Positions 1,098-23,449 of a stretch of DNA of 33,292 nt are shown here, one piece after another. The position numbers and the translations under genes were made by a program. The stretch is from NCBI GenBank assembly GCA_003614675.1, contig ML002409.1, forward strand, positions 1 to 33,292, read 5' to 3'. The DNA is from Dimargaris cristalligena. Lineage: Eukaryota. How positions within the stretch are numbered: the first letter of the stretch is position 1; each line of letters starts with the position of its first letter. The notes under the pieces are model-generated. The model saw only the letters and a program-made list of their open reading frames with translations, did not search any database and was not told the origin of the DNA.

Positions 1098-2048
1098 AGC
1101 ATTTATAGCACAGATGTAATAATCCAATATATTATATAAGTTGCTTAATACTATAGCCAGTATTGTCCAATTATATAATTCCATCCCGGAACTAGGTGAG
1201 CCCCGTAGTTGAGCGGTGGGCCATTGTTCCTACTTGGTCAACCGTAAACCGGCGGCCTCACTCGACTCGGAAAAGGCGAAGTTCCAAATCTCCGTATACG
1301 CATTAGTAGGTTTCCCGACTTGTCTTTTCCAATACTCCATGGTCCTGTGGAATATATGTTGGCTACTTCAACTAGCGGAAAAAGAAGAAAGCCCGGGGTA
1401 CTAGTCGCTCTGATATTTGACCACTTCTATTCATTAGCAAATATCTATATATCGGCTTTGAGAGGTGGAGGCAGTATGGAATAGGGTATAGGTAGCCCCA
1501 TAATAGTCGAAAGGTGGAGGCAAAACGTATCCGGCACCATTTTGCCGGACTTTTCACTTTGGAATGATGTAATTATGGGCCAACCTAGGCGTGCTGCTAT
1601 TCCATAATATATAATCGCCCATTAGCGTGCACGGCATAGTGCGGTTTTTCTCCGGCGAAGGAGGAGTTAGGAGTAGACGAGGGTGGGGCTCGAGTTGAGG
1701 CTCGGGGTCAACTCCATTCTTCACCGGGACAAGGTAGCGTTCAACCGAGAATTCCTGTATACCCTGCAAGCCAATGGCTTTTTATTAAAGGTTCAAACTC
1801 CATCACACCCGATCCGAGTGATTTTCTCTAACCATCACTAATCATACTACTATTTTCCCTGTGCATTGAAATAGCCAACGACCAGGCCAAGGAAAGTCGG
1901 CAAGGCAGGTCGCTCGTTGAATAAAAAATACCCCCGCCAATGGGTACATAAAACGAATAATTGGCGCTAAGGAAAATAGTCGGGTATTTCGAAACCGAAA
2001 GAGGGGAGGGGTGATGTATAGCAGTAGGCTTCCTTTGGATCACGCAGA

Positions 2049-2056
2049 TATAAATA
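2049..2056 (+). promoter_or_regulatory. Probable TATA box of secreted paralogue 1
   Basis: TATAAATA lies ~230 nt upstream of ATG 2281, inside cacgcagatataaatag, which is conserved in the paralogous promoter (19179..19186, - strand). Confidence 0.6.
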
Positions 2057-2280
2057 GCTATGGAAAGTCCCCCCTTCGACACTTATCTACATCTTGCCCA
2101 GACAAAGTAGCTTTATTTTGCCATCTCCCTCTGATAATAATTTCCTATATTAACTTAGCTGTTGTTCACATACGCCTGTTCATCGTGCCGTCCTTAGCCA
2201 TTTGGTACGTACAACATTTCCCCCGCCCCAAACTTTTCTCTTCGACCCCCGCTCATCGATACCCTGACAGCTTCTCTATT

Positions 2281-3372
2281 ATGAAGGTCAACATCGCTGC
2301 TATTGCCGTGGTCGCTACCGCCGGTGTATGTATGTCTACCGTTTCGGCCACTCCCCTATTAGGGTCTAGTAGCTCCAATACCAGCAGCGCTGCTGGAAAC
2401 CAAGTTACGGCTGAGAATATCCATCCTTACTGCGCGGCATTCATGAATGTCGCCAACAAGGGCCTGTCCGCCAAATACCGTGCAATTAAGCGTAAATTCG
2501 ATCTTTCATCTTATGGAACAGTCCAGGGAACGGGTCCAGGGAGCTCCACGCCATTCACCAAGGAAAAGCTGGCTGCTTTTGAGAAGCTTCAAGCCGTCTT
2601 TTCTGATGCCTACAAAGGTAAAACTAATGCTGCATTGGACGAGGTACCTAGTACCAATCCCGGCATGGTGAGCTACGCCCTAGAAGTCACGGCCAACGGT
2701 ATTCGTCCGTCACTCGTGAATGACCCCGGAATAGCTGGTTATTTCAAGGCCTATAGCCAAATGTCCAAAAATAAGCGCCCAACTCGCTATTTAATCCTCG
2801 ACTCCAAGAACCCCGTGGACATGGAGACCCAAAAATGGCTACAGGACTGCTATGGCGGCATCCTCGGGTCGCCCAACACCGCCAATGCCCCACTATACGT
2901 TCCGGTTAACGATAATATGATACCGTCAGTCGGCGGCAATTCCGATGGATACAATTCAACGCCCTCTGACCCAGCGTTGGCTACCGAAGGCAAGGTTGGC
3001 GACTCTAAACTTCCCACTGGCCAAGACCCGTCATCTATCAATGGCCCCAGCAATCCCTATCCCCCACCCCTACCTACCCATGTTCAACAATACAGTGCTC
3101 AACAGTCCCAGTCGAGCCAGCAGTTCAACGAATATAACGGAGCTTCCAATATTCCCAATTCTAACCCCCAGCACCTGTCTAACAATGGTCAACAGTATAG
3201 CAACCCTCAGTCCAATCCGGTTTGGCAGCCTTATAACGTTAACGGAGCTACGGCTGCTCCCTACGCCTACCCCGCACCTCCCACGACCCAGGGTGAGCAA
3301 TACAACACCCCTCCGCTCTACGTAAACCCGACCAATGGAAACTATATAAACCCCAGCACTGTGGCCATCTAA
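2281..3372 (+). CDS. Secreted protein, unrecognised 'PYC-NGIRP-YLILD' family, paralogue 1 (363 aa)
   Basis: ATG 2281 begins a signal-peptide-like N-terminus (MKVNIAAIAVVATAGVCMSTVSA|TP). A conserved two-Cys domain is shared with 17919..18929 and 10762..11684, followed by a P/N/Q/S/Y-rich tail. The ORF-track extension from 2011 overlaps the TATA box and is treated as UTR. Confidence 0.85.
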   Translation: MKVNIAAIAVVATAGVCMSTVSATPLLGSSSSNTSSAAGNQVTAENIHPYCAAFMNVANKGLSAKYRAIKRKFDLSSYGTVQGTGPGSSTPFTKEKLAAFEKLQAVFSDAYKGKTNAALDEVPSTNPGMVSYALEVTANGIRPSLVNDPGIAGYFKAYSQMSKNKRPTRYLILDSKNPVDMETQKWLQDCYGGILGSPNTANAPLYVPVNDNMIPSVGGNSDGYNSTPSDPALATEGKVGDSKLPTGQDPSSINGPSNPYPPPLPTHVQQYSAQQSQSSQQFNEYNGASNIPNSNPQHLSNNGQQYSNPQSNPVWQPYNVNGATAAPYAYPAPPTTQGEQYNTPPLYVNPTNGNYINPSTVAI

Positions 3373-6300
3373 AGTCTCAGCCAGTGTCATCTAAACTGGC
3401 CCCTGGGTTGCCTATGCTGGCTCAAATCCCAGTGGGCCAAACAGGAGCCACCCGTGGTACTAATGAGTCGGATTGTTTTCTACCAACTATCGATTGACAA
3501 TATGACTTACCAAGACAGCTAACGATGGGTTATTTAGTATAGTTTATTTATATACCTCGCTTTCTTTTACAATTTCAATTTATCTTGACAGACATACCTT
3601 CTGTATATACTAGTATATTCTTGCAGTGAGCTCTTCGGTGCAAGGGCACTTGATATTGACATGCCTTCTACGCCTATTTTTAAAACCAAAAACCCACATG
3701 GATGTCAATAAAACCAACTTAGCTATAGTTATAGCAACGTACTAGCTGTATATCAGTTATGTTAACGCCCAATCCCAGAAGTTTTGTTTTGAAAATATGG
3801 TATATAGTGTTACTTCTAATCCTGCGGCCGGGGCTAGCTCCGCCAACACCAATAAGTTTGTATCTATGCCAAAGGATGGTATGGCCGGGAATTGATGCAA
3901 CCAGGGGCATAGTCACTTAGAAACCCCGACCATTGGCACATATATATCCCTGTCCATCAGCACCAACGGCTCCAACCCACAAAACCTCTTGTCCTCGCCA
4001 ACTAGACTTATCAAGCACGGTTGTTGCCCTCTCATTTTCCAGGGCTACCTCAAGGCTTAATACCCATTAGGGTCGAACCTCACACTCACCATGCACTTTC
4101 AGCTCGCAGTGTAAAATCTGAATTGAATACGTGTAAAAGCTGCTCTGCTAACATGGTAATAATTCTTTACTTTACTAGCACTCCAATCGCTACTATATCA
4201 TTATATTTACTATCTATATCAATTGCAGCCAATGCTTAAGACAGACACAAATAAGGTAAGTGTGGGTGCTGCATGTCCGCAGTAGGGGGGGGGTGTTGTA
4301 TTATATCTTTATTCGGGAATGATCGAACGACTTTTTAGTATTTACCTTGATACCAGTGTAAAGGTGGTGGGCAAATCTACATACTACTTAGAAATCCCAT
4401 GCATAACTTAATTTTCTTATTTATTTATAATGTTTTCCCACTTGGCGGAATTGTTCATGGCCGGACCATCGATGCCGCCCATCCAACTTCTCTAATGTTA
4501 CTCAATGTAATCAAATGACCTTGGGAGGGGGCAGGGGACAAACAGCGGTCGACCGGAACAGATACAACATATGTGGGGGTAGTTCAACAAGGCTGTATAA
4601 CGAAAAATCCTTTTGATGAGGCAAACACTACTTGTTAAAAATAAACATACCACCAATTTTCCCCTACACATATCAGATAAAACCTTATATAACCGAGCTG
4701 AACTTCACCCATATTTTTAGACACTCAGTATTCTGTAACATACATATTTGGGTGACATTCATTACTGTATATCGAGCCACACTTGCCCTGAATTAATAGA
4801 CCACTGAAACAGTAATATGGCAGCTATAAATATTGCATATGGAAAAGGCATGCCCATGGGGCTTAGCGAATTTGGTGAGCGAATTGAGCTATTTTATTAG
4901 TAGATATATTTATTAATCGACTGAGATATAAAGTGATAAAAGAGGATACTAGCGAATGAATGTATTAATGAGTGAGTGGGAGTAATAGCCATCTGAGGGG
5001 CTCTACCTCGCCGAGTTATTTCTTTCTTTTAATATTGGAGAATACAGAGGCCTAAGTTGGGTTCTCCTCTATGGGGATTGTTTCTAATTGGAGGTGGTTC
5101 CACCCTGGCTGTATGCCCGTCAACGTGAACTACTTGGCCGATGCCAAGTGCTGCTGTTGGCTCAGTATTAACACCCACACATGTTAATTGCATGATTACC
5201 TGTTAAGAAAAATGCACAATTATGCCCCCCACAATTGGCTTTAAAGCAAATTACAGGTATGGGGTATACATGTCTATTCCCCCTTTGATGAGGATATGTA
5301 AGAGCCCAATATTGTAGGCAGGAGTGAGAGTTGGAAAACATTCTCCCGGGATTAGTAAATTAATGAATAGGGGTAAGCGGGTCATGGTGACAGGCGGCAG
5401 TCCGCCAGATATACATACATATCTATTACTAAGCTCTTGGCTCTGGAATTTTATTTGGGCAGGGTATGTATTGGAAATTGATTTATCCCGCCAACCAACT
5501 AAGTCCGTACCTTAGGCCAAGTGCCCTATGGTTGGGACGGTATTATATTGGCTAATATTTTCCACAAATAATTTTCTCAATCAAATTAACTGTAGAAATT
5601 TACCGTTCACATTGGGCATTGCAACGGCCTGGGCCCTTGGTTTCGTAATGATTCGGTGAGGTGCGTATCTATAAAATGATTCCGGCTTGAGAAATGCTAG
5701 GGGAGTGCATGCTGTTGTAGTGCCGTGAGACCACCACCGATTGGCTTTGGATATCTGGCTATCAGTTCAGCCGGTGGCTGTGATGACAGTATCGCCAATT
5801 ATCGATTATTTGAATAGTAATGACTGATATGACGATTTTATGAGGTCGATTTGAAACGTGGAATGTAACATTGCATATTTAAACGATTTCTTTGAGACCT
5901 TTAGTTCGAGAGCCCTCTTCGAAATAAATTGAAATTTTCTGTGTATACTTTTCCCTTTCTTTTACGATTTAGAGTCCTATGGCAATAATTATTTATTGAA
6001 ATAAATACTATATGCACAATACTGGCTCATCCTAATTATTTATTGTTTATTTAAATAATATATTTGTTATTACGTCTTATCCATCAGTCGTTTTTTTCTT
6101 GTCCGGCCAAAACCCCTCTCTGTCGGCCAGGACCCCATAGATCAGAGTCTGCAACTCCCAGGCGCATCCCCAAACCCGGCGCCGTGAGTGCCTATCCTGA
6201 CAGCAACTCATTAACATTATTGAGTGATTACTGCCTGCGACAATTTCCGGTATCGTAATCTTAGGAAGCCTACCCATTTGGACTTTTATCTGCTATTGTA

Positions 6301-7026
6301 CCGGTTAATTACTACACCATCAAGTATAAGAAAACTGGTGAGACATCTATTTTCAACCCGGCATGCCCATTTTAATAACCGGGGTTTTTTAAAAAAAATT
6401 ACAATTGGATTGAATTCATCCCAGATCTAACCTGAAACTATCAGTTACGTGTATACTATTTCCCGCTTCCCTCCGTAATCAGACAAAGTCTTTATTTTAT
6501 TATATTGGCGGCACATTAACAAATTGACTTATACACTCTCAATTTTAATAACCACACAGTATGCCCTTCTCGTGGCATCGTTATACTACTCACCGACCTC
6601 CTGTCCGGATTATCCAACTCCTGGTATCATATAGGAACTAGATTGAGGCTGTTCATTTGGGTTATAGATACCCTAAAATGTGCTGAGTCAATCAGCCAAA
6701 CAAGTGCCCACTTATTCAGACAAAAGTATACCATATTGTCCTATACTTCAACTTGTGATATAGAGCCCTTTACTTTTGTCTACCACTAAGCCGTCCATTA
6801 ATTAAGGCGTAAAAGGTACGGATTTTTATTTGGAAAAGAAAATTTCAGGGCTGCCTATACTAGTCAGCCCCCTAAAATCGCAGGTCTACTCTTTAGTTAA
6901 AGTATATGGACATAATATGCCTCACTGGGAAATGCCAAAACACACTAATGCTGTAAAAAATATGGAATGAGCCGGGAAAATCGACCCTTCTCTTCTGTTG
7001 ATTTTCTTGTTTGGGTATCCCTGCCG

Positions 7027-8310
7027 TTAATTACCACTGGCGATCCAATTTTTTATTTGAGCACCCCAGTTCCTTATGTAATTCAAGGGATTAGTACCTT
7101 GGTTATGCCACACCGAGAAAGTCGTGTACGTGTTGGTAAACGGCGCAGATTTTCCATCAGGCAGGCCGAGTACATAGCTACATAGAGGCTTGTTTAGCTG
7201 CATGTCCTTCAGTTCTTCAGCTGGTACCGGAGTTATGTTGAATATGCCATACAGATTATTCCTAGACCTAGCATAACCCATTACGCTGGCACACTCCGCG
7301 ACTATTTTGAACATGATAGATGATATGGGCGGTAGGTTTTTAGCAGTTAAAGTAGTGAGTGCCACCGTCTTCTCCGTTACGGACGGGTCATTAAGTCCGG
7401 CCACGATCATGGGCAGGCTACAGGTTTTGGTTGCACAATAGTTCAGTACTCTGACCCAACCCTCTCCCGTCGCGGACTCGGCGGCGATGGCCCATAGAAT
7501 TTTTTCAACCAAGATGGTTTGCATATAAGTAATAAATGCAATGCGATCCGAGTCTCCCGCTGGGGAACGGCCCACGGTAAGGTTAATCCAACGGGTCATC
7601 AGCTCATCACCATACGTATGCAACAACTCCTGGACGTTACTAACGTATTGTAAAACTTCCGCCGGATATTGGGCCGCGCACCGAAGGAGTGGGAACAACA
7701 TGGCCTTTTGGTTATCCGACACGCTAGTCCAATCGACTTCCTTGTATGGGGTCGGAGTTCCCGCCGCGGTAATAGTACCCCTGCTGGCGCTGAGGGTGAG
7801 ATGGGATTCAAGATCTTTGCGGATCCACCCCAGGTAATCATCCACTAGTTCAGGGTCGGCGGTTTTCGAATTGTTCTCCGTACCATCTTGTATTACTTGT
7901 TTAAATACAGCGGCCATGCCTTGAAGTTTTTGGCAGTTAAATGGTCCTTGTACGTCGGCCTAGCGGATTGAGCGATGTATAATAGACGACACAAGGGTGA
8001 GAGTTAATATATATATGCCAAATAAGATAAGTTGGTGTGTAGGGGTGGGCCCGTTTAGGCCGACTCGATAAATAAAGCTTCGGTATAGGTAGTAGTCTGT
8101 ATTGGCCGATAGGACAGGGCGCAGGCCGAGGTTACTTACATGGTGTTTTCTTTCATTGTTCAGCTCAGGGGCCACTTTACTTGGACTTTTTACGTCTTGA
8201 TAGTTCACCATGCGAAGAGGACGGACAAAATCACCACCTCCTCCGTACATACCTAAGACCATTTGACAAGCGGTGGCCATTAAGCCAACCGACAGGATAA
8301 TATAGTTCAT
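7027..8310 (-). CDS. Secreted orphan protein, two exons join(8310..8140, 7959..7027), ~367 aa (alternative ATG at 8331)
   Basis: Signal-peptide-like MNYIILSVGLMATACQMVLG. A phase-0 intron GTAAGT...ATTAAC...CTAG joins ORF 7960..8472 in frame to ORF 7027..7917 (..ERKHH|ADVQGPFNCQNFKGMAAVF..). No domain recognised. Confidence 0.8.
7960..8139 (-). other. Spliceosomal intron (180 nt) of the secreted orphan gene
   Basis: Donor GTAAGT at 8139, branch-like ATTAAC, acceptor CTAG at 7960. Splicing restores the frame. Confidence 0.8.
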
Positions 8311-8649
8311 TGAAGGGGCGTGCTTGGTCATTGTAATCTCGTCAATTGGACTGGATAAATGAACAGGTACAAGATGATTTTCCGGGACTGATGGGTTCAC
8401 CACGCTAACTGTGTGTCTTAATAAAATTATGGACAGGGAGTTGGCAGAGAATACAACGCAGCGGCTGTTCAAGGCGGGGTTTTCAAGATGAAATAAGTAA
8501 AATACCGTGTTGTTAATAATATGGTCTATAGAGGTGGGAGTGGTGGTGTGGAAGGAAGGAAGGAAGGGAAGCTGCCATGTGTACTTTTATATGTATATAT
8601 AAATATGTATGCATTCGTACGAAAAACCAAGGTTCATGTATAAGGATAT

Positions 8650-8671
8650 GGGGTTGGGGCTGGGGCTGGGG
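8650..8671 (+). promoter_or_regulatory. Putative four-tetrad G-quadruplex motif upstream of the secreted orphan gene
   Basis: GGGG-TT-GGGG-CT-GGGG-CT-GGGG lies ~45 nt upstream of a TATA-like AT tract (~8586-8605) of the - strand gene. Confidence 0.45.
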
Positions 8672-10761
8672 CTGGACGAGAGGTAGCGCGGAGGATGAAG
8701 TGACGCGGTATTCTCGTGGGTATACCCTAAACTACAATTTCAGCTAAAGAGCCCCTCTCATACTGTGAATAGGCCCCCTTGAAAATAGAATATGTGGGGA
8801 TACCGCGATCTCTGATTGGCTTATCCGGATACCTTGAGTAACGGTTCCCTCAAACAATCGGGACGGCCGGGTCGCATCGTGTAATTCTAGACCCTACCGC
8901 TTCCCATTGTATGTTTCACATATTTTGCTCTTTTTGAGAGACCATTGATTCGGCTCCCTTTTTTGGAACAACTTCATTATAAACACCTCACCTGTACGGG
9001 TATAACTGGTCAAACTGCCCTTTATTTGGAAAGCTGCTTCTTTTATTTAACTGTAGCGCCCCATGCCGTTCATTAGAACCGCTAAATTAGTTAGCCTTTA
9101 TGTACAGACCTATACAGCTAAATATAATATGGATAAGGCAGCAGAGGAGTTCTGCGGTTTAGTGTGTCGATGGGTAAAGAGTCCTACAGTCCCTTCTTGA
9201 CCGGCCTGCATGAATTAACCAAATCTATCCCGTTGAACCTCTTTCGGTTGTACCATATCTCTAAGCCTTTAGACTATTGGTTAGGGTAAAAGACATCAGC
9301 CGCATTACTCGCGAATAGCTTACGTTCTAATCGGATATCCCAATGGTACTGTGGCCTTGGTAAGATGTTTTTAAGCGAAGGAAAGGCTGGGCATGTCTTC
9401 AATTGTACTACATCCCTTCGGATAGGATGATTGGAATGGTCGGTCGGCCTCACCTCAACTCTACTCTACTCTACATTTCGGGATTTTATGGGTATTATTA
9501 TATATACCTAATGCCTGAATAGAACGGCCTATATTCGTGCTATCCCCTTCCTGCCTAAGCCTTAGGCGACCATGCTACTTGGCCAAAATTAGAATAGAGT
9601 TAATGAATAATAGCTTGGCATTTGGGCCTTCAGAGCTGAGCCCGATTTGGTGAACGGTCTACTAAATTTGGTATCTCCAAATGTTGGGCGGTAGGCCCAG
9701 GTGGTCCGTGTGGTCAATAAGACCACTTTTCTGGCTCTAAAAATATACCGCCTAAAAGGCACTCTGTAATGAGCCTAGGGGCCATGCGTATTGAGGGATT
9801 GGGTAGACAAGGAAGCAATATCTCGGCTGGTGAAGGGTGTACAGAACAGGGCCATGCCACTACCTCGATGGAGCACAGTAAACTAGACCAATTAAATGAT
9901 ACCGCCGATTATAAAAATATAAAGGTGTAATGGCAGCCATTAGTTATTACCACTATTTTTTGGGAGGAGGGGGAGAAGCACTCGCTGTGTGTAAGAGCTA
10001 GACTAGGGGTTAATAGCGGTACCCGAAAATAAAGCTAGCCAAAGGCAACCGAGGCAAAGGGAAACATAGTAAAACAATGCCAAGGAGAGCAGTTGGCACT
10101 AACAACCGTCGAAGGGACATGTAATTAGATAGTTGTCCTGGATATAGTAATATACATGGGGCATGATAGAGGGGGACATTCTTTAAAGATAAGGCAACAG
10201 CAAGCACATGTGTGGCTAGAGATCCGCGCCTGTGTATGTTAGATTGGGTACGGGGAAATTAGCTAGTGTGGCGTATATTATGACTTGACTATCAACAGCG
10301 TATGCGTCTACTTTATAGTTATTTCCTCCTCCTAGCAAGCCTGGTGAATTGGGAGGGAGCTTTTTAGCTGGCTAGTCAGTCGAATTTTCCAACCGAGCAG
10401 CGCGAAGCAAGGCTTGCCCTCTTATTGTGACTCTGTTCATGGTGGGTATATGCCTGACACGTTGTTTTATTTACAGCGGCGTTGGGCTATAGGGGCCAAG
10501 TCTTGATTCGGATACTTGGTCCAGGAAAGATTCTATGCAAAGATATGACCACCGAGCAGCCCTTTAAAAACTAAATATCTGAGAAATACCTCTGCGCGTG
10601 GCATTAGGCAAGTGAAAAATATAATCTATGCTATAGGAGACTGTCTACTGTCTCCGACAAATATTCTACTATTTAAGTGTGTCCAGTTGGGGGGAAGCGT
10701 CATTCAAAGTACTGAGGGAGAGGGGGCATACAATGGGCTGGGACGCTGGGATTCCGTTGAT

Positions 10762-11684
10762 TTAAGCGGTAACTAACGTTGCCGGGTCGGGCGGAGGGTA
10801 GCCATAGCTATTGCCCAACACTGGAGCAAGCTGCTGGCTGGTGTTTGGCCCCGGCTGGTTATATTGGTTAGTTTGCGATACAGGCATTCCCATACTCTGG
10901 GGGGGATAGGCATCTCTATGGATGGGAGTGGGAGGGGGTGCAATATAGCCTTCAACAAGCGGGGAAAGCCCTAGAGGGTGATTAGTTTGGGCGACGGGGT
11001 TGTATTTGGTGTTGGTGCTGGGTGCACCCGGAGTGAAGGACTGATGCCCCGGATTCAGCGGAAGATATTGATTAGGAGTCGTTGCCATTGGCTTTACTGC
11101 ATTTTTTTATACGTGGCAAAAATATCCCCCATTTTTTCCGTGTCAGCCAAGGCCTTATAGCAGTGGCCAATCAACGCCATGGCCACCTGGTGTCCGGGAA
11201 TGCGACGGTCCAAAATAAGGTATTTTTCCGGTTTCTCGCCGGCCATTTTCGTCACACTTCGAAAGACCCCCGCGTCAAAAGTATCCTGAGCCACACGGGG
11301 TCGAATGCCATTGGGAGTTCGCGTGAGCGCAAAACTCACGTGGCCCTGCTCTTTGCTAGGGGCATCGGCCAGGTGTTCACCGCCGACTCCTTTGTAGCCG
11401 TTTCGAAAGGCCTTTAGCAGCAGTTTATAAGCAGCATCGTACGAGGCGGACATGCCACTGAAGCCAAGTTTCAGTTTGAGGCTGAGGTAAACGCTGCGCA
11501 ACTTAGCCCGCAGCTTGGGACGCCGGATATTGAAAAGGGGCTCACAGTAGGGTCGAAGCGGAATATCGGGGACAGTGTCACTGGATGGGAGGGGTTTGTG
11601 GAAGCCTAGAAATGGAGAGGACGACACGGTGGTCAGCATTATGGCCATAGCAACGCCAACCAGGGCGACCGTACCTAGTTTCAT
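10762..11684 (-). pseudogene. Secreted 'PYC-NGIRP-YLILD' family paralogue 3, frameshifted at an A7 run (196 aa as written; ~307 aa if A8)
   Basis: Signal peptide MKLGTVALVGVAMAIMLTTVSS; motifs RPYC, GYKG, SFALTRTPNGIRP, PEKYLILD, HCY. One extra A in the run at 11102..11108 fuses ORF 11094..11684 with ORF 10762..11088 (..YKKNAVKPMATTP..), restoring the P/N/Q/Y tail seen in the paralogues. It could equally be an intact gene with a homopolymer sequencing error. Confidence 0.7.
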
Positions 11685-11862
11685 GGTTGCAAAGATGCAG
11701 GAATCTCACCTCGGAAAAATAGAGAAGCCAAGGGGGCTACTCTAAACAACGCAGTAGATATAACCGGAAATGGGCAAATAATAAATGAACAATTTAACCA
11801 AGAAGCTGTTAAAAGGGAGCAAAGTACCTAAACTAGGAATGCAAGGGAAATGCAGCAGTAGG

Positions 11863-11863
<1 letters not shown>

Positions 11864-11891
<28 letters not shown>
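11864..11891. repeat. (TA)14 microsatellite in the promoter region of paralogue 3
   Basis: Perfect TA dinucleotide run ~180 nt upstream of ATG 11684 (- strand). Confidence 0.95.
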
Positions 11892-11895
<4 letters not shown>

Positions 11896-13323
11896 GGACA
11901 ACATCTTTGAGGTGTCGGGGGAGGATGAAATTATCGAGCCATACGGGGCAATTGCTCAATTGGATAAATTGACTCTAAACATCAGCTATTTCTGCCCAAG
12001 AGCCTTGTATTATACGTAAAGGGCGTCCGACTCACCAGATTAACAAGGTGCGGCTACTAAGCTTACAATAGAGCAGCCAGCCCTTCATCAATAGTAGCTA
12101 CTTCGGCAACACAAGTGCTACTTTGGGGCCGTGCCCGATGGGCACAGTGGTGACTGTTGGAACATACGGTTTTACACAGGGCAATGCCGCTTAGGGCGTT
12201 CAACTACCTGTATCTAGCCGACGAGGACACACCCGCCATAATCGCCCATGGCGCTGTTGGCAAAACCTACAAAATTCGGGTGGCATGGTCGGTGAGCACA
12301 GTGGTCGCAGTTGGAATTCAGGATTTCACAGGGCGAGGCCACCTCCTGCCCTTATATACGTGCATGCCGCCGACGGTGGTTTTTGCCAAGGCTCCCTCGT
12401 ATTTGAGGTCGGTTGGTACGTGTGCATCGCTATTTAGGCGGTAATTAGAGAGGTTCGGGAGAATAGGAGGGACACGAAGAGGGCATGCGGTTTTTCTTAC
12501 CAATGACATAAAGCATGAACAAAATATAAAGGGGTGGGATGTCCATAAAAAGGAAGCGGCGAGCAGGCGGTCGCCCATAACCAAATGGCCGGAATAGAGA
12601 CCGCTATACTGGGAAAAATAGCCGAGCGGGATAAGGATGATATCACAGGAATGGCCGAGCCTAGACCCCACATCATGGCGATACGGACCAGGGCCGAAAA
12701 AGACAACGGACTGGCATTAACTGGATAACAATAATTGTGTAAATGGGATTCCCGCAACTCTATGAAGTTGAAAGCCCACCCTGCGGACTCTGGCCTGGGC
12801 TTAGAAGGATTCACTGCAATGCCCCCATTATATCATACACCGTTTGCGCTGAGCTTGCCAGGCAGGCATGGGCTGTAGCATCTCCACCCTTCACTACAGT
12901 GAAAGGGCATACATGGCGTTGCTTATCTAGGAGATTTCAAAGGCATAGCATTCCTTCACTAACGGCGATTAGATATGCCGGGCAGGGGGGAGATGTAGAA
13001 GTATGAAACAGGCCCTTGTCAGTTGACCAGCCCACTGAGCAACAAAATCCCATTAAATTTGACAAGCATATATATTAATGCCGCATTTATCCACCTCCCA
13101 GCACGTTGGAACTCCTCTTGCTTCTTATTGGTTTTGGCTGTTGATATTTGTATTGCGTTGATCAGCATTCGTCTCTGCTGTCTTTTCTCCTTAACCTGCC
13201 ATTTCCCTTCGTCACATGTACCATACATCTGCTCTTCGCCATCCAACAGCCAGCCCCGTCTCCCATTGTCGTGTCTTCAGTGTCAAATAGTTTTCTATAT
13301 ATCTCTAGGTACTTGCACAGCGC

Positions 13324-16300
13324 ATGCCCCGCTACTTGAGTCGAGCCGGAACTGGCATCGACGCCTTCCAGTCCGACCTTGCCCGTTTTGTGTCCATCGA
13401 TGACCGCCCCAATCTCACTCAAACTCAGCCTGCCCGCTCCGGTAGTTCTCGTCGGTCGCGCCGCCGGCAACGCTACCGTGACCAAACTACAACGGGTCCA
13501 CCTACCGCTCGCCTCCATCCTAACCCAGCAGCCGCCACAGGTGTCCAATCGTCTGGACCATCCTTCCCCCGCTTAACCGGCGAATCGGCCCATGCTCCTT
13601 TCACCGGAAAGTCCCGCCGTCAAAGCGACTCCTTTTTAACCTTGGCCAACCCATCGGCAACCGCCGCCCGGCTGGAGTCTCCCCTCCAGTCTCCGGTATT
13701 TTCGGCCATCCGCCGTCGGCATTCCAACACCAGCAGCCACAAGTCCTTTATAACCAGCCACCCCTCCGGAGGTACCCGTTCGTACCACCATCGGTTCTCG
13801 GGCCGGTCCCATGCGAGTCGACGCCGACTGTCGTCCGATGGGTCGAAACCCTCCTACCCCTTCTCAACTACTACCGGCGGCCCTCAGCCGGGCTCTCCCA
13901 ATTTACTTCCTACCTCACCGCGTGTACCCCTCCTAGGCGGCAACCCTGCTCGCCCATCCAATTACGGCGCCTTGCCATCGCCCGGCCAAGGGTTGGCGGA
14001 CCCAGTACCGATCGTGGCCCACAAACTGGGTACATTTGACGGAGTGTTCCTTCCCGTCTGTTCCTCAATCTGGGGCATTATCCTCTTCGTCCGAATGGGG
14101 TTCGCGGTTGGCCAGGCTGGTATCATTGGGACCGCCGGTATCTTCCTACTAAGCTATCTCATTACCATGCTGGCTTCGCTGTCAGTTTCGGCCATTTGCA
14201 CCAACGGCGTAGTTAAAGGGGGCGGCCCGTATTACATGATTTCCCGCTGCCTCGGCCCCGAATTCGGTGGTAGCATCGGCGTCGTCTTCGCCTTCGGCAC
14301 CCTTCTTTCCGGAGTGCTTAATGCCATCGCCTTCTCCGAACCTCTTGTGGCCAACTTTGGCCTCCACCACGGTGACCTGGTGAAATTAATCCCTGAGGGT
14401 TACTGGTACAGTTTCATGTATAACTCCATTGCGTTGTTCTTCTGTGCAATTGTATGCTTCCTCGGCGTTCAGCTCTTCGCCAAGGCCAATACTATCCTGA
14501 CCGGTATCGTGTTCTCGGCCACCTTTTCCACTTTAGTGTCGTTTGTCTTCAAGGCCCCGTTCTCAGCTCCGCACAAGCATGTGGAGTTTACGGGGTTCAG
14601 CTGGCAAACCTTCCAAGAAAATCTGTGGCCTCAATTCACGGCGACCGCCCCGGGACAACCCCCGGAGAGTTTTTTGACAGTATTTTCGATTCTTTTCCCT
14701 GCGTGTATCGGTATAATGGCCGGCGCTTCCATGTCGGGTGATCTGCGCAAGCCCAGCAAATCCATCCCGAAGGGGACGCTGGCCGGACTGGGAACCACAT
14801 TTACCGTCTACATACTGCTTATGCTCGGTCTAGGTGCCACCACCACCCGCAACTCCCTACTTCGCAACTACAACGTGCTCCAAGAAATCTCAATCTTCCC
14901 CCCAATTGTCGCCCTGGGCTCCCTCTCCACGGCCTTTACATCCACTCTAACCTGTATGATCCTGTCGTCCAAGATCCTCCAGGCCATTGCCCGCGACCAC
15001 ATTATTCCCTTCTTCAGCGCCTTCCGCTATGGGGCCCCCAAGACCGACGAGCCCCTCGTGGCCACATTTGTGAACTACCTCTTGTGCCAGATTTGTCTGC
15101 TGGCTGGCAATGTCAACGCCGTCGCCCCCTTCGTCACCATGTTCTACCTGCTGACCTTTGCCATCATCAACTTGGCCTGTTTCCTCCTCAAAATTAGCTC
15201 GGCTCCTAACTTCCGACCTTCGTTCCATTTCTTCAAGTGGTGGACCGCCTTCCTCGGCGTGGTCGTGAGCTTCGGGCTTATGGCGGTGGCGGACCCCTTG
15301 ATTGCGTCCTTATCCGTCCTGCTCATGTACCTCCTATTTATCATTATTCACTACACCGCTCCCCCCAAATCCTGGGGCGATGTGACCCAATCGCTCATCT
15401 ACCACCAGGTGCGCAAGTACCTCCTTCGGCTCGACTTGCGCAAGGACCACGTCAAATATTGGCGTCCGCAAATCCTATTGCTCGTTCATAACCCCCGGCG
15501 TATGTACCACCTCATCAAATTCTGCAATTCCCTTAAAAAGGGCGGGTTATTTATTCTGGGGCATATTCTGAAGGGCGATTTTCAATCCCATTTGCCCGAA
15601 CTCCGCCGTCAGCAGCAAGCCTGGCTGCGTTTCGTCGACGTGGCCCAAATTAAGGCATTCGTCGATCTCACCATCGCCGATTCGGAATGTACCGGGGTTC
15701 GGAATCTTATTCTGGCCTCGGGACTGGGAGGGATGCGGCCCAATCTAGTGATTATGGGCCTATACGACCTGAGTGGGTACCGTTACCGGCTGCGCTACCA
15801 CCGGGAGGAGGACTCAGACTCGACCTTTTCCGACGACTCCTACGATTCGGACCTTGACTCAATGGACCTGCCCACCGACCAAATCGAGCTTGAGACATCA
15901 ATGACCGTACAGGACTACGTTTGCATCATCGAAGACCTCCTGGTCATCAAAAAAGCTGTGGCCCTGTCCTACGGGTTCACCCGCCTGCACAAGACTTGCC
16001 CTTCGCCCTGCAATTCTTCAAATAGTCGTTGGTGGTCCCCCTTCAGCGACCACCCGGGCAAGAAATACATTGACCTTTGGCCGATCCAAATGTCCGTTGA
16101 GCATCCCACCTATGCTGCTCCGGACGACCCGTTGGCCGATGTGGGTCCGGCAGGCCACCGCACCTACACCACCAATTTTGATTCGTACGCCTTGGTCCTT
16201 CAATTGGGTACGATTTTACACATGGTACCCTACTGGCACGACCACTTTGTGCTCCGGGTTATGTGCTTTGTTGAACATGCCGCCGACGTTAAGGAAGAAT

Positions 16301-17565
16301 ACCGGCGGGTTAAGTCCCTACTTGAAACCCTCCGCATTGACGCCGAACTGAAGGTTCTTTATCTGGACTGTGGTCAAGTGGCAACCTACGATTTGATCGT
16401 CCAGGGTGACTCGAGCCATGTTGAGGCCCACGCTCTGGAGGAACTGTACTGCGCCTTGGACCACCAGCCAATGGAACCCGGTCATGCAACTGCACTCCCC
16501 CTCCCGGAACCGCTGCCGGGTATTTTGGCCACCCAGAACGGTCTCTCCCCAACGTCCGAGGCTGTCACCACCGCCCTTCCGGCTACGTCCGCCATTGACC
16601 CCATTACTCTGTCGCCGGATACTACAGCGGACCTTCCGGCCCCCCGGGTGGTTTTCGGCATCCCTAACCATGACCCCGGTCGACCTACGCCGGCCGCTAC
16701 CCAACTGCTTCCCCTGAGTAGTAGCGAAGCGGTGCTGCAAATCCAACGCCAGGCGGCGCCCCAAATGGCCCTGTCCGGCTCGATGCGTATGAACATTTCG
16801 CTACCCCCCGCCGCGCCCGACCTCGACAGCGAACCGTCGTACAGTGGTAGTGAAACCAGCAGTGATGCCGACGACTACCACTTCCTCTACGAGCGCTTCG
16901 AGGGTCGTCTGGCCGACCGGACTTATCCCACTGATTGGAATACTGCCCTGGAGTTACCGCAGTTCCCGTCCAATCACCCGGCGGTCTCGCCTGGTATGTT
17001 CCACACTAATGTAGATATACCGGAAGTTGAAGGACTGTCCTCCGGGTCCAGTTCGACCCAACCCCTATGCCCTTCAGATACTACGTCGCTACCCAATGGC
17101 CCGGTGCTCTATTCGCAAGTCTCGTTGATCCAGCCGGTCCGTAGCCCCGAGATCGACTGTACCCTCCCTCCACATGGTGACGAGCGGTCGATCCACTCGG
17201 CACCGGGCAACTTAACCGCAGGAGCCAACGAAGGCGAACCATCATCGGATAACGCCCGCCCCTACAACCGGGAAGGTGGAGTGATTCCTTTCGCTGGACC
17301 ACCACTAGCCTCGCCCACTCGCCAGCGCCTGGAATTCAACGATCTTACCAGCCGGGCGCAAAATATCATTCTCAACAACTTGATTCAGCTACATTCCAAG
17401 GAAACCGCCGTTATTTTTACAACGCTACCCACCCCTGATAAGGGAACGCACTTGAGTGAAGAGAAATCCGTGGGCTACATTGAAGATATCGAATTGTTGG
17501 TCAATGGGCTGCCCCCCACCATGTTAATCCATGCAGCCTCGCTGACCGTGACTACCGCGCTATAG
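13324..17565 (+). CDS. VHC1: Cation-chloride cotransporter (SLC12 / amino-acid-permease superfamily), fungal vacuolar Vhc1-like, 1413 aa, intronless
   Basis: SLC12 motifs KLGTFDGVF, GGGPYYMISRCLGPEFGGSIG, FPACIGIMAGASMSGDLRKPSKSIPKGT, NFRPSF, KYWRPQILLL and GLGGMRPN. About 12 hydrophobic segments; C-terminal TVTTAL typical of fungal Vhc1. Confidence 0.92.
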   Translation: MPRYLSRAGTGIDAFQSDLARFVSIDDRPNLTQTQPARSGSSRRSRRRQRYRDQTTTGPPTARLHPNPAAATGVQSSGPSFPRLTGESAHAPFTGKSRRQSDSFLTLANPSATAARLESPLQSPVFSAIRRRHSNTSSHKSFITSHPSGGTRSYHHRFSGRSHASRRRLSSDGSKPSYPFSTTTGGPQPGSPNLLPTSPRVPLLGGNPARPSNYGALPSPGQGLADPVPIVAHKLGTFDGVFLPVCSSIWGIILFVRMGFAVGQAGIIGTAGIFLLSYLITMLASLSVSAICTNGVVKGGGPYYMISRCLGPEFGGSIGVVFAFGTLLSGVLNAIAFSEPLVANFGLHHGDLVKLIPEGYWYSFMYNSIALFFCAIVCFLGVQLFAKANTILTGIVFSATFSTLVSFVFKAPFSAPHKHVEFTGFSWQTFQENLWPQFTATAPGQPPESFLTVFSILFPACIGIMAGASMSGDLRKPSKSIPKGTLAGLGTTFTVYILLMLGLGATTTRNSLLRNYNVLQEISIFPPIVALGSLSTAFTSTLTCMILSSKILQAIARDHIIPFFSAFRYGAPKTDEPLVATFVNYLLCQICLLAGNVNAVAPFVTMFYLLTFAIINLACFLLKISSAPNFRPSFHFFKWWTAFLGVVVSFGLMAVADPLIASLSVLLMYLLFIIIHYTAPPKSWGDVTQSLIYHQVRKYLLRLDLRKDHVKYWRPQILLLVHNPRRMYHLIKFCNSLKKGGLFILGHILKGDFQSHLPELRRQQQAWLRFVDVAQIKAFVDLTIADSECTGVRNLILASGLGGMRPNLVIMGLYDLSGYRYRLRYHREEDSDSTFSDDSYDSDLDSMDLPTDQIELETSMTVQDYVCIIEDLLVIKKAVALSYGFTRLHKTCPSPCNSSNSRWWSPFSDHPGKKYIDLWPIQMSVEHPTYAAPDDPLADVGPAGHRTYTTNFDSYALVLQLGTILHMVPYWHDHFVLRVMCFVEHAADVKEEYRRVKSLLETLRIDAELKVLYLDCGQVATYDLIVQGDSSHVEAHALEELYCALDHQPMEPGHATALPLPEPLPGILATQNGLSPTSEAVTTALPATSAIDPITLSPDTTADLPAPRVVFGIPNHDPGRPTPAATQLLPLSSSEAVLQIQRQAAPQMALSGSMRMNISLPPAAPDLDSEPSYSGSETSSDADDYHFLYERFEGRLADRTYPTDWNTALELPQFPSNHPAVSPGMFHTNVDIPEVEGLSSGSSSTQPLCPSDTTSLPNGPVLYSQVSLIQPVRSPEIDCTLPPHGDERSIHSAPGNLTAGANEGEPSSDNARPYNREGGVIPFAGPPLASPTRQRLEFNDLTSRAQNIILNNLIQLHSKETAVIFTTLPTPDKGTHLSEEKSVGYIEDIELLVNGLPPTMLIHAASLTVTTAL

Positions 17566-17918
17566 GTAAATCTGGAAATATAAAAGCTATCTGGGTTCAC
17601 GCGATGGTGCTCTATTGATTATTTAAAATGTATTAGCTTCTTTAATTTTTCTCATTCACTCGGTATATCCGTTTGTTTTATTAAATAAATACTATAATAA
17701 TTAAATATACGGGAAATTCGACCCCACCTTGGGTGATATTGATTGAAATAATTGAATTTACCCAGCATTGGCAGTCTTGGTCAGCCTTGCTGCCAATCGT
17801 AATAAAAAGAAAACCCTTCAACTTAGTAATAGCATGGGAGTCTCCTGTTCGGCCCACTGGTATTTGAAGTGGCATAGGCAACTTAGGGGCTAGTTTGGAT
17901 GGTGTTGACTGAGACTTA

Positions 17919-18929
17919 TTAGACGGCGGCAGTGCGACGGTTCTCAGAATATTCGTAAGTCTGGCCTATGTCGAGCGGAGGGGTGTTGTATTGCTCACCC
18001 TGGACCGTGGAGCGTTCAGGGTAGGCGTAGGGATTACTCGAGGCTCCGCTAGCGCTATTCAATAGCTGGTTTGGGCTGGAAAGATGAGCATCGTACTGTT
18101 GAGCACGGGGGGGCGAGGGGGCGGTGTAGGAATTGGAGAGGTCATTGGTAGACGACAGGTCTTGGCCAGTGGGGAAGTTAAAACCGCCGGGATTACCTTG
18201 GGTAGCCAACGCCAGGGCAGAGGGCGCTGCATCGGATCGATTGGGATTGCCGCCGAGTCTCGGCATCGTACCATTATCGACGGAAACGTCCACTGGTATA
18301 TTGGCGGCGTTAGGTGGTGACCCGAGGGTGCTACCATAGCAGTCCTGCAACCAAATCTTGGCCTCCTGGTCCACGGGATCTTGGAGGTCAAGGATTAAAT
18401 AGCGAGTTGGGGACTTATTATTGGACGATTTATCATAGGCATTATTATAAGGCACTTCGCTGTGGGTTTGCACAAGCGACGGACGAATACCGTTGGCCGT
18501 GATAAACAGGGCGTAGCTCTCCATGCCAGGATCGATACTAGGTGTCGCGGCCAACCCATCATTAGTTTTGCCCTTGTAAGCATTATAAAAGGCGGATTGG
18601 AGCTTCTTAAAAGCATTCAGTTCATTCTCGGTGAAGAGCTTGTCTTTCTTGGTGAATATCGGGAGATTCTTTCTACCTTTTCGCAAGTCACTTTCATGAG
18701 CTGAAATAATTATTTTACGCTCAACGGCACGGTATTTGGCACTCAAGCCCTTGTTGGTGACATTCTGGAAAGCCGCGCAATAGGGGTGGAGCTCCTCGAC
18801 AGGAACCTGTTCCTCGATAGCGTTGTTGGTCTTGGAGTTGCCCAACCAAGAGACGGGAGTGGCCGAAACGGTGGACACACATACACCGGTGGCAGCGACC
18901 ACGGCGATAGCAGCGATGTTGACCTTCAT
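17919..18929 (-). CDS. Secreted 'PYC-NGIRP-YLILD' family paralogue 2 (336 aa)
   Basis: MKVNIAAIAVVAATGVCVSTVSA|TP signal peptide, nearly identical to paralogue 1. HPYCAAF, NKGLSAKYRA, AYKGKTN, TANGIRPSLV, PTRYLILD and WLQDCYG are shared; P/N/Q-rich tail. Confidence 0.85.
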   Translation of the reverse strand: MKVNIAAIAVVAATGVCVSTVSATPVSWLGNSKTNNAIEEQVPVEELHPYCAAFQNVTNKGLSAKYRAVERKIIISAHESDLRKGRKNLPIFTKKDKLFTENELNAFKKLQSAFYNAYKGKTNDGLAATPSIDPGMESYALFITANGIRPSLVQTHSEVPYNNAYDKSSNNKSPTRYLILDLQDPVDQEAKIWLQDCYGSTLGSPPNAANIPVDVSVDNGTMPRLGGNPNRSDAAPSALALATQGNPGGFNFPTGQDLSSTNDLSNSYTAPSPPRAQQYDAHLSSPNQLLNSASGASSNPYAYPERSTVQGEQYNTPPLDIGQTYEYSENRRTAAV

Positions 18930-19178
18930 AATAGAGAAACTAGCAGGGTATCGATGGGCGGGGGAGGGGGATAGACCGAAGAGAAAAGCTTGGGGTGAGC
19001 GATATGTCGTACGTGTCAAATGGCTAAGAGCGGTGCGATGAACAAACGTAAGCACAAGAGCGTAGGTGAACAACTGCTAACCTAAAATAGGTAAGTGGAA
19101 TCAGAGGGGGAAGGCAAAATAAAGCTACTTTGCCTGGGTAAGGTGTAGATAAGTGCCTTAGAGGGTTCTTCGCCCACC

Positions 19179-19186
19179 TATTTATA
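19179..19186 (-). promoter_or_regulatory. Probable TATA box of secreted paralogue 2
   Basis: TATAAATA on the - strand, in the same conserved context as 2049..2056. Confidence 0.6.
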
Positions 19187-20194
19187 TCTGCGTGGCCCAG
19201 GCTGATTCTATTGCTATACACCTCCCCTCCCTTCTTTCGTTTTCGAAATATCCGACTCTTTTCTCAAGCGCCAACTATTCGTTCGACGCAGCCATTGGCG
19301 GGGGGGTCCTTTCAATAAGCGACCTGCCTTGCCGACTTTCCTTGTCCCGGTCGTCGGCTATTTTAATATACTGGAAAAATGTCAATACAATTGAAGATAG
19401 CTGGACGAATCCACCCGAACCGGATATAATTAAGGTTGAACCCCGAGTGAGTGACCCTTGACCTTTAGCACAATAGACGAAAATTCTTAATTGAACGTGA
19501 GCGTCTCCCTGCGACAAAAGGGAGTCGGCCCCCCAGCCACAACTCGAGTCCTGCCCTAGTCTACTCCTAACTCCTCATTCGCCGAAAAGTAATCGCACTA
19601 CACCGTGCACTCTAGCGGGGGGAAATATTTAACGGAATAGCAGGACGCCTAAATGGGGCCATCACTACGCCACTCTAAAGTGAACAGCCCGATTAGACGG
19701 CACTGAATACATGTTTCTTCCACTTTTCCAGTATCGTGGGGCTGCCAATGCCCAATTTTATACAGTCTCCACCTCCCTGAAGCCGATACATATGTCTTTA
19801 CCTACCAATGTATAGTAGCGGGTTTCTATCAGAGCGGTTATTACCTCAGATTGGATTTGTTTACAAATGGTGAAAAAGGTCGACGGATATTCCGTCGGGC
19901 TGTGGGGTATAGGAAAAGCAAAGTCAGGCAGTCTACCAATGCGTATACGGATAGTTGGGGCCTTATCTCTACTATGTTGAATGAGACCGACAGTTAAGGG
20001 TCAGCCAAGTAGGTGTAATGGCCCAATGTCGAACTAAGGGGCTCAACTAATTTCCGGATGGAATAGTTCAAGTGCTTACTACCATCCACACTGTAAAAAA
20101 TCATAATATACCTCGACTTTCTTGCTATTGGTTTAAATGTGGATATCATTGAATGCAAAGCCATTGTCCTAAGGATTCATGAACAGATGCATTG

Positions 20195-21294
20195 GAGGCC
20201 AATAGTAGCCAAGTCTTCACCAGCATCGCCATACTTCACCCCTTTTACGGTCCGAAATCGGGAGTCGGCTAGTGAAAAAATAATTCAACTGCGCCCTTTC
20301 TGTCCTAGTTACCGCTTAAATTATTAACCTTGCTACCTAGCTCCCTCCCCTGACTGGAATCCCCCTCCTTCGAAACAGCGGCTCTACAAAGAGGAACTAT
20401 GTCCTAAATGGGTCCTCGCCGATCATTTCATGAACTTCAGAATTCTATTCAAACTTTCCAAAAAAAGGCATCGAGAAGGTTAGGTGGCTCTGGCTTACAG
20501 GAGCTAGGCCTAGTAATGCGGAAAATAGATTAGGAATCCATCTTGGGATATTTCAAGCTCGACGAGGCAATTCCCCAGCCTACTGGAAAAGAATTGCCCA
20601 AAGGGGTAGACAGGCGGGACTCTGGGTTACTTTAGCCTATGGCTAATGGTCGAGATAGTTGACGAGGTGGGGAGAACGTGATGTTAATAATGCTATGAGA
20701 GATTGGTGGCAAATAATATAGGGACTTACTAAGGGATTTCCCCATGAATTGCCAACAACGCTCTTTTTTTCATAGATTCCCAAGGACTTTCTTACGCTTA
20801 TATGGATAGTGAAATGCTATTGATGGTGAGTAAAAGGGGTATATATATTAAAAATAAAATATGTATAAGTTGGCAATAAGTCAATGGTGGGGAAATATAC
20901 TGGTGTATCAAATTTCTGGCCATAATAAGTTGCCAAATAAATGTTAACCCGAATTTAGTAAGCTAATTTTGAAAAATAGGAAACAGATGGTGGCGAGAAT
21001 GGGCATTATCCCCTAGTAGTCAACTATGGCCAGCCAGTCAGGCTGTACATTACTCACCTAGTTACTGTCAGGAAATTGCTTAACCTTCCTGACACACATT
21101 TTATATTATAGTGCCATTGGGGATGAGATTAGTAGGGCATTTGCAATGGTGGCTCTATATGAAAGAGGGACTGGATAGTTTATATTGGACATTGCTGTTG
21201 ATGACAGGCATAAATGGTATTCATAGGAGGGTTAATATATCTCACAAATTGGTACTATTTATACATCCAGTTACCCTACATATTTCTTTTTTTA
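20195..21294 (+). repeat. Duplicated block A, copy 2
   Basis: Direct-orientation homologue of 1..1097; ends at the mariner left TIR. Confidence 0.92.
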
Positions 21295-21296
21295 TG

Positions 21297-22602: not shown

Positions 22603-23449
22603 TAAGCTAAGGAACTTATATACCAAAACTTGGCTAAAATACTTATATGCTCGGACAACACTGTGGAGTTGTCCTAAAAGGAATGCTTAAGAGATCTGCC
22701 AGTGTCTGGAAAACGCTGATGGAAACATAGCAGTCTTTGGATGAATACCTGGGTGTGAAGGATGTGGGATACACCACACGTAACCGGGGGATAAACTAGT
22801 AGGGCATCGTGGCAAGGGATGTTGCTACGGGAAGGCACTTTTGCCTAGTAAGATCTAATGTAGGCGAGTTGCGCGGAAGGGTCTCAATCCTATTAGGGTG
22901 GATTAGCCAGCGCGACACCTAATATAAGAAACTTTGTTTTGCTTTATGACTGGGTTGATAATGTCCCGTGCATGTACATTTTCGACTCAAGGCACTCCGG
23001 GTTTCGCCTATTGATGGCTTTATTGAATCTGTGATCAGCGAGTTGATATTGTAGATGTCCAGTACTATACGATTAAAATCGGAACCCATTTTAGATTAGG
23101 TTTGATACCTGGTTACATTCATTCTGACACCGTTTCCCGGTCTATATAAAACGGTATAATGGTAAGATATGATTTGGGGTCGCCTGTGGTTGCCCACCTA
23201 TTTTACCAAACGGCAATCAGTATCGCTATACATAACTAGCCGAGTGGTTTTTAATATCACCCACACACGCCTCCCTTTCTTCGGAACAACTCGGTGACTT
23301 ATAGTATTGACTAAAATGGAGGAGTCAAGTAGATAATGCGGGCCACCCCGATCTACTAACATCCCTGGATATTGTTTAGAAATGAATTTATAAAATATTT
23401 TGGGGAAAACTTTGTTTAATTAGGCCAGGGGGTCCAAAACCCATTTTGG

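Follow-up and report, generated by a model that had tools for sequence, protein, structure and literature searches.

A window of 33,292 nt from Dimargaris cristalligena (GenBank assembly GCA_003614675.1, contig ML002409.1, positions 1 to 33,292, which together make up the whole stretch analysed here) holds three paralogous genes, P1, P2 and P3, whose predicted products share a signal-peptide-like N-terminus, a domain with two conserved cysteines and a low-complexity tail. Sequence comparisons indicate that they belong to a real, lineage-restricted and fast-evolving family of secreted-type proteins with an unrecognised domain, for which an effector role is plausible. Passages of two sources describe the order of this fungus, the Dimargaritales, as haustorial, biotrophic mycoparasites of Mucoromycota (PMC10386755; PMC6784888), and D. 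cristalligena itself is a haustorial mycoparasite (PMC10386755), as had been supposed in a preliminary description of this DNA, which was made from the letters alone and placed the family in a parasitic fungus.

The paralogy is real and far above chance. In tblastn comparisons within the window, P1 matched P2 with E=3e-85 (52% identity over 317 aa) and P3 with E=9e-21 (32% over 194 aa), and P2 matched P3 with E=1e-17, the next best match in the whole window having E=0.094. When 667 six-frame segments, each 30 aa or longer, were scanned with a hidden Markov model (HMM) of the family domain, the P1, P2 and P3 loci matched with E<=2e-62, followed by a next best segment at E=2.8. Neither tblastn nor the HMM gave a fourth copy, which by sequence similarity puts the copy number in the window at exactly three. 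All three proteins start with M-K followed by a hydrophobic run; in their three-way alignment PYC, AK.R, YKG, NGIRP, YLILD and CY form invariant columns, and PS..G..S[YF]AL..T is also common to them. The two cysteines lie 139, 146 and 128 residues apart in P1, P2 and P3, respectively, and each of the three shows the combination that defines the family, namely a signal-like N-terminus, a Cys...AK...Cys arrangement with the 109-149-residue spacing found across the family, and a match to the profile. When the alignment is extended to eight members, which are 21-54% identical to P1, the invariant positions are M1, K2, A7, C51, K65 and C190 (P1 numbering). The searches and alignments therefore agree with the preliminary description, which had proposed these three paralogues with a common two-Cys domain and these motifs.

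The N-termini look secretory as well. Judged by simple rules rather than by SignalP, the N-terminus is basic in all eight members, and each has small residues at -3/-1 as well as a hydrophobic 10-mer (mean Kyte-Doolittle 2.0-2.9), in line with the signal peptide described earlier for P1, P2 and P3. No later hydrophobic segment was found in any of the eight (maximum 19-mer hydropathy after residue 25, 0.55-1.04), and by the same measure none of them has a C-terminal hydrophobic signal of the glycosylphosphatidylinositol (GPI) type, their C-termini being polar. The stereotype of a cysteine-rich effector has several disulfides, with at least four Cys in the mature protein; all eight members fall short of it, each having exactly two Cys after residue 22.

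Counted from 12 residues past the second Cys, the tails are 29-162 aa long and rich in P, N, S, Q, Y and G; they measure 98-158 aa in five members and are short in P0009 (29 aa) and P0010 (62 aa), and that of P0008 has a tandem QPISYNQ-type repeat. Two short motifs, picked post hoc and among related sequences, exceed expectation: Y-x-Y-P occurs in the tails of P1, P2, P3 (10765..11106) and P0010 (4 observed vs 0.4 expected; 2/2000 shuffles), and [PL]P-x-Y occurs six times (1.3 expected; 3/2000 shuffles). Y-x-Y-P sits toward the C-terminal part of the tails, across three deep subfamilies. In length, the family straddles the limit of 300 aa that the Methods of PMC9391592 set for a small secreted protein (SSP): P1 (363 aa), P2 (336 aa), P0008 (318 aa) and P0011 (339 aa) are above it, and the P3 domain open reading frame (ORF; 196 aa), P0006 (293 aa), P0009 (261 aa) and P0010 (234 aa) are below it.

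P3 departs from the other two in its reading frame. The preliminary description had treated 10762..11684 (-) as one coding stretch, which proved incorrect, as the frame is open for 196 aa only and then meets stops; its claim that a P/N/Q/Y tail follows the domain holds in P1 and P2, whereas the tail of P3 is homologous but lies in a different frame. The closest relative of the P3 domain, P0006 (H4R33_006503; 53% over 193 aa), carries domain and tail in one frame, and 16 of 31 residues are identical between the two tails (E=9e-5). The frame switch in P3 adjoins an A7 run at 11102..11108. Rather than an intron, we favour a one-base length difference at this run, which may be a true mutation or an error of the assembly. 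For an intron, the junction gives only GTAAAG or GTATAA, of which GTAAAG is the only GT..AG candidate, and an intron is less favoured because these GT sites are weaker than those of the examined intron of the window, in the XPF/ERCC4 gene, which has GTATGT and a CTAAT branch site. Two public gene models cover the P3 locus: P0005, identical to the P3 domain ORF, ends at 196 aa, and P0007 reaches the tail by splicing, with an upstream exon and only half of the domain retained. The different ways in which they treat the break suggest that it is present in the annotated assembly too. A perfect (TA)14.5 microsatellite at 11864-11892 precedes the start codon of P3 by about 180 bp.

The two-Cys domain appears to be undescribed so far. 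Pfam gave no family at E<=0.01 for P1, P2, the P3 domain or the P3 tail, and a lenient search (E<=10) of the eight members returned two families, each matched by one of the eight, at E 0.051 and 0.089. Against 177,635 distinct PDB sequences, the family profile had a single and spurious match, to tau (E=1.5). AlphaFold2, supplied with the eight-sequence alignment, modelled residues 25-205 of P1 with a mean predicted local distance difference test (pLDDT) score of 66.9 and a predicted template modelling score (pTM) of 0.65, and P3 with 66.4 and 0.62, respectively; core blocks reached a pLDDT of 77-92 in both. The models of these two proteins, which are 32% identical, have the common order a-a-a-b-b-a-b-a (H-H-H-E-E-H-E-H): a short helix with the first Cys, two long helices, a beta-hairpin corresponding to S[YF]AL..T.NGIRP, a helix, a strand corresponding to YLILD, and a last long helix with the second Cys, after which the full-length P3 model has two extra short helices.

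Foldseek returned no match at E<=1e-3 for the P1 and P3 models among 350,542 PDB chains (best E 0.46 and 0.34; template modelling score (TM) <=0.23 for both models among the matches listed), and a further Foldseek search, of BFVD, also gave none at E<=1e-3; the ESM Atlas likewise gave no match (TM<=0.34, using the Atlas's own model of pLDDT 0.43). Weak Foldseek matches to uS7, CapRel, CNPase and a cNMP-domain protein (E 0.3-2, TM<=0.23) were discarded as noise. Ribosomal protein uS7, which combines a helical bundle and a beta-hairpin, recurred at low rank because its secondary-structure elements follow a similar order; it is no real match (E=0.4-2, probability <=0.08, TM 0.11-0.18, root-mean-square deviation 15-18 A) and, being a cytosolic RNA-binding protein, no homologue of this secreted family. 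Provisionally, therefore, the modelled domain has no known fold among those in PDB, BFVD and the ESM Atlas. The preliminary description had called the domain unrecognised and proposed AlphaFold with Foldseek as a check, and both the sequence and the structure comparisons are on its side.

The family also appears narrowly distributed. One round of searching with a three-sequence profile (E<=1e-3) among 1,835,955,588 representative proteins matched nine. Four of these are gene models of the three loci in the window (P0003, P0004, P0005 and P0007), and four are other D. cristalligena genes (H4R33_006503, H4R33_006206, H4R33_000171 and BJ085DRAFT_35329); all six matches with a source name are from D. 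cristalligena, and P0010 comes without one. The current picture, which is not a proof, is thus of a family limited to D. cristalligena, the source of P0010 aside, with at least seven loci (seven to eight by the sequences at hand). This supports the lineage specificity proposed earlier, and at least four further members dispersed beyond the three window loci give a partial answer to the genome-wide copy count that had been asked for. According to the Data Availability statement of PMC9866270, further genomes of the order (Dimargaris xerosporica, Dispira, Tieghemiomyces) have been deposited.

In the public annotation, H4R33_002983 is 97% identical to P1 and H4R33_002987 matches P2, both on the same contig. 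P1 differs from P0003 at 9 of 296 residues and P2 from P0004 (H4R33 annotation) at none of the first 277; the differences in P1 could represent strain or haplotype polymorphism concentrated in this gene, and D. cristalligena has been reported to be non-haploid (PMC10386755; PMC6784888, in part of each text). The model P0003 ends at 296 aa, at which point the P1 ORF of the window continues to residue 363, and P0004 drops 15 tail residues as a very short 'intron'. The public models P0003, P0004 and P0007 look imperfect.

P1 and P2 are, as judged from their alignment, the products of a local inverted duplication of about 2.3 kb. The two blocks align by blastn with 71.5% identity over 1989 nt and 73% over 300 nt (inverted repeat pairs I1-I7). 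In the conserved 1.1 kb upstream, 301 of 1098 aligned sites are mismatched (27%). A coding element in this part was rejected, as the mismatches are spread over the three phases (104/97/100 of 366 each), no ORF is conserved and tblastx matches are scattered over all frames. The coding sequences (CDS) of P1 and P2 differ at a proportion of 0.32 of synonymous sites (pS) and 0.26 of nonsynonymous sites (pN); the overall dN/dS is 0.76 (domain 0.70, tail 0.85), and their mismatches by codon position (99/83/88 of 328 codons) have no third-position excess. In sets of 20000 neutral simulations, a frame of 1089 nt stayed open 64 times at p=0.15 and 3 times at p=0.274. The three indels between the two CDS, of 7, 1 and 35 codons, are all in frame, whereas upstream, where divergence is equal, gap lengths are not divisible by three. 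These data show that amino acids have changed fast, at near the silent rate, and yet the reading frames have been kept open. Around the start codons, about 100 bp (2245-2344; 18866-18965) are 90% identical, compared to 60-80% for the rest of the block, and the signal-peptide codons have a pS of 0.10 against 0.33 elsewhere, suggesting gene conversion or constraint on the 5' untranslated region or signal sequence.

In the tree, P3 pairs with H4R33_006503 (support 99/99) and not with P1 and P2, which group with H4R33_006206 (88/95); P0009 and P0011 form another pair (100/99). The locus tag of H4R33_006503 is far from the tags of the cluster. By this grouping, the cluster consists of one old member, P3, and a younger duplicated pair flanking an SLC12-type gene. 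The preliminary description had pictured a family expanding around a housekeeping gene; this is apt for the inverted P1/P2 duplication on either side of the SLC12 gene, and not for P3, which belongs to an older subfamily with a dispersed sister. The GC content at third codon positions is 0.53-0.59 in the paralogues and 0.58-0.66 in neighbouring genes, and this closeness indicates that the family genes are native.

A second duplicated segment of about 1.1 kb was also observed, at 3-1093 and 20197-21295, in direct orientation and with 71-85% identity (families D1-D6). At both places it adjoins the upstream end of the inverted P1/P2 block, in the opposite relative orientation, and it runs into the left edge of the window. 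It was rejected as coding, with no codon periodicity and no Pfam match for its longest ORFs, and may be a repeat element or a trace of the rearrangement behind the duplication.

We give about an even chance to a role of this family at the host interface, as candidate effectors or adhesion factors. The proteins would enter the secretory pathway and would consist of a signal peptide, a short disordered linker, an alpha+beta domain of about 150 aa and a disordered P/N/Q/S/Y-rich tail. The two invariant Cys, in the first short helix and the last helix, would be joined by one disulfide, stapling the domain for extracellular life. The domain is more probably a binding module than an enzyme, because the family has no invariant residues but these two Cys and one Lys, and with so few of them a conserved catalytic site is unlikely. 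The putative site of action is the parasite-host interface, where an appressorium or haustorium meets Mucorales hyphae; the tail may serve as a flexible spacer or tether with short Tyr-Pro motifs, and the family would have diversified via duplication and rapid divergence under host-driven selection. A bolder version of this proposal, which we regard as unlikely, is that the domain is a new fold and the family the first effector family for haustorial fungus-on-fungus biotrophy in Zoopagomycota, that the proteins are delivered to or into Mucorales hyphae, that the tail motifs (Y-x-Y-P and [PL]P-x-Y) engage host machinery such as WW-domain proteins, and that the head diversifies to evade or match its targets.

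Several points weigh against a role at the host interface. The proposal of candidate effectors is drawn from sequence, and the signal peptides were judged by simple rules. P1 and P2, at 363 and 336 aa, exceed the 300-aa limit for SSPs, and with two Cys they are not Cys-rich; the low-complexity tail makes up half of every protein, as is commoner in wall or adhesive proteins than in classical effectors. The frame of P3 is interrupted, and this gene may be decaying. Confidence in the structural models is no more than moderate (mean pLDDT 66-67, from an eight-sequence alignment). With dN/dS below 1, positive selection is not demonstrated, and relaxed constraint would give an equal figure. Distant relatives in other fungi could escape a single round of searching with a three-sequence profile.

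The tails suggest a different function, in which the family would comprise self-directed structural, adhesive or cell-wall surface proteins of hyphae, spores or appressoria, with the head displayed on a wall-cross-linked or sticky P/Q/N/Y tail. Tails rich in P, N, S, Q, Y and G take up about a third to half of most of the proteins, their composition has been kept despite fast change in sequence and length (the 35-codon indel; dN/dS 0.85), and they contain Y-x-Y-P tenfold above expectation (a motif chosen post hoc among related sequences) and, in P0008, the QPISYNQ-type repeat. However, none of the eight members has a GPI-type C-terminal hydrophobic segment (19-mer maximum 0.55-1.04), no wall or adhesin family of Pfam was matched, and the tails of only 29 and 62 aa in P0009 and P0010 indicate that the tail is not essential to the family; moreover, wall proteins with a structural role are as a rule conserved between related fungi, and this family is very narrow. 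We therefore regard a wall function as possible, though rather doubtful. A secretion-type N-terminus and a disulfide-type Cys pair, in a parasite that attacks other fungi, would also fit a secreted enzyme or a killer-toxin-like antifungal toxin with a new catalytic or pore-forming domain that directly damages the host; a toxin had also been named in the preliminary description. This is very unlikely, given that no more than three positions outside the signal (Cys, Lys and Cys) are invariant, with the D of YLILD replaced by N in P0010, that neither sequence nor fold matched an enzyme or toxin family, and that no amphipathic or hydrophobic segment of the pore type is present; the biotrophic, haustorial habit described for the Dimargaritales in parts of PMC10386755 and PMC6784888 likewise disfavours host-killing toxins.

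Finally, the ORFs might be young orphans with little or no function, arisen by near-neutral drift of duplicated DNA or by annotation noise. The divergence of the P1 and P2 coding sequences, similar to the 27% of the non-coding upstream flank and with no third-position excess, and the broken frame of P3 are as expected from such drift. Against it, an open frame of 1089 nt is improbable under neutrality and was achieved by both copies, all three CDS indels are multiples of three, the domain can be recognised, both Cys included, in eight members whose identity falls as low as 21%, and two members that are 32% identical yield a matching predicted topology. The kept domain, Cys pair and predicted topology require long-term purifying selection on the core, and drifting, functionless ORFs are very unlikely.

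Structure-defined families of fungal effectors include the MAX, RALPH/RNase-like, KP6-like, ToxA-like and FOLD families. Like these, the family described here is putatively secreted and disulfide-stabilised and has divergent paralogues that share one predicted fold, and it has duplicated locally and evolved fast in a parasite. Neither of its models, however, matches these families or any other PDB entry at E<=1e-3; the predicted order is a-a-a-b-b-a-b-a, one disulfide is putative, the disordered tail is long, and the host is another fungus rather than a plant. Hwp1 of Candida albicans is a Pro/Gln-rich fungal surface protein, and Hwp1-type proteins resemble the putatively secreted family in being secreted and in having a long P/Q-rich low-complexity region, which in them mediates attachment to the surface of another organism. 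They differ in that the present proteins have no GPI-type C-terminus and a two-Cys head without a counterpart, and general searches gave no sequence relationship.

A putative secretion signal, the lack of a Pfam domain and a narrow taxonomic range are shared with the zygomycete SSP orthogroups presented in sections of PMC9391592, from which P1 and P2 differ in exceeding 300 aa, a length that would place them in its class 'OTHER'. According to the same sections, 2,222 of 3,066 multi-species zygomycete SSP orthogroups are without Pfam similarity, and because such orphan secreted families are common in fungi, the interest of this one is moderate; Pfam-less, lineage-restricted secreted families being very common in zygomycete fungi, it is one candidate among many and would not surprise a specialist. 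The name Dimargaris does not occur in the main text of PMC9391592, nor do the words secretome, secreted or effector in that of PMC6784888. Mentions of effectors in passages of PMC9866270 concern fungalysins, and passages of the Dimargaritales genome papers treat proteases, carbohydrate-active enzymes and secondary metabolites and no effector families (PMC9866270; PMC6784888). Among the papers retrieved on Dimargaris effectors and D. cristalligena secreted proteins, no title or abstract mentions such a family. The molecular basis of Dimargaritales parasitism on fungi is almost unknown, and the family would be a concrete, testable handle on it; the two-Cys domain would be a new domain family for databases.

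Table 1. Coordinates of the three paralogues, the duplicated blocks and the intervening gene in the window.
Feature	Position	Strand	Description
P1	2281..3372	+	363 aa, uninterrupted frame (standard-code translation)
P1, signal-peptide-like part	2281..2349		residues 1-23
P1, two-Cys domain	2413..2880		residues ~45-200 (C51, C190)
P1 tail	2881..3369	+	P/N/S/Q/Y-rich
P2	17919..18929	-	336 aa, uninterrupted; signal-peptide-like N-terminus, two-Cys domain (C51, C197), low-complexity tail
P3 domain ORF	11094..11684	-	196 aa; signal-like N-terminus, C47, C175; stop codon 11094..11096
P3 tail frame	10762..11106	-	114 codons from stop to stop, P/N/Q/Y-rich, in another frame than the domain ORF
P3 frame break	11094..11110	-	overlap of domain and tail frames; A7 run 11102..11108, stop codon 11094..11096
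Duplicated block B (P1 copy)	1178..3530	+	~1.1 kb non-coding upstream, P1 CDS, ~150 bp downstream
Duplicated block B' (P2 copy)	17760..20064	-	inverted relative to B
SLC12-type cation-chloride cotransporter gene	13324..17565	+	1413 aa; between P3 and P2; housekeeping, outside the family

The family lies in gene-sparse surroundings. Lower-GC stretches without any ORF of at least 100 aa flank the paralogues (3400-7000, 8600-10700, 19000-23400 and 30100-32900), and the 1-kb bins with the lowest GC, at 4-7 kb and 20-23 kb, have 37-44%, compared to 52-60% for housekeeping genes. The assignment of the SLC12-type gene (Table 1) comes from Pfam matches of its product to AA_permease (E=2.5e-63) and SLC12 (E=4.6e-19). 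No RNA genes were detected in the window, with no hit for Rfam families and none for tRNAs. Inside the cluster, at 7027-8586 (-), is a gene without a Pfam match, in which a 296-aa ORF (7027..7917) is preceded by an open stretch of 208 codons in the same frame (7963..8586), the two being separated by a lone stop at 7960..7962; this arrangement could reflect an intron, a pseudogene or two genes. Farther along, an XPF/RAD1-type nuclease gene at 27081-30241 (-) has an exon with the ERCC4 domain (27081..27977, Pfam E=1.7e-24) and an upstream ORF of 631-697 aa without a Pfam match, and the intron between these ORFs, at about 28023-28190, carries the signals GTATGT...CTAAT...CAG.

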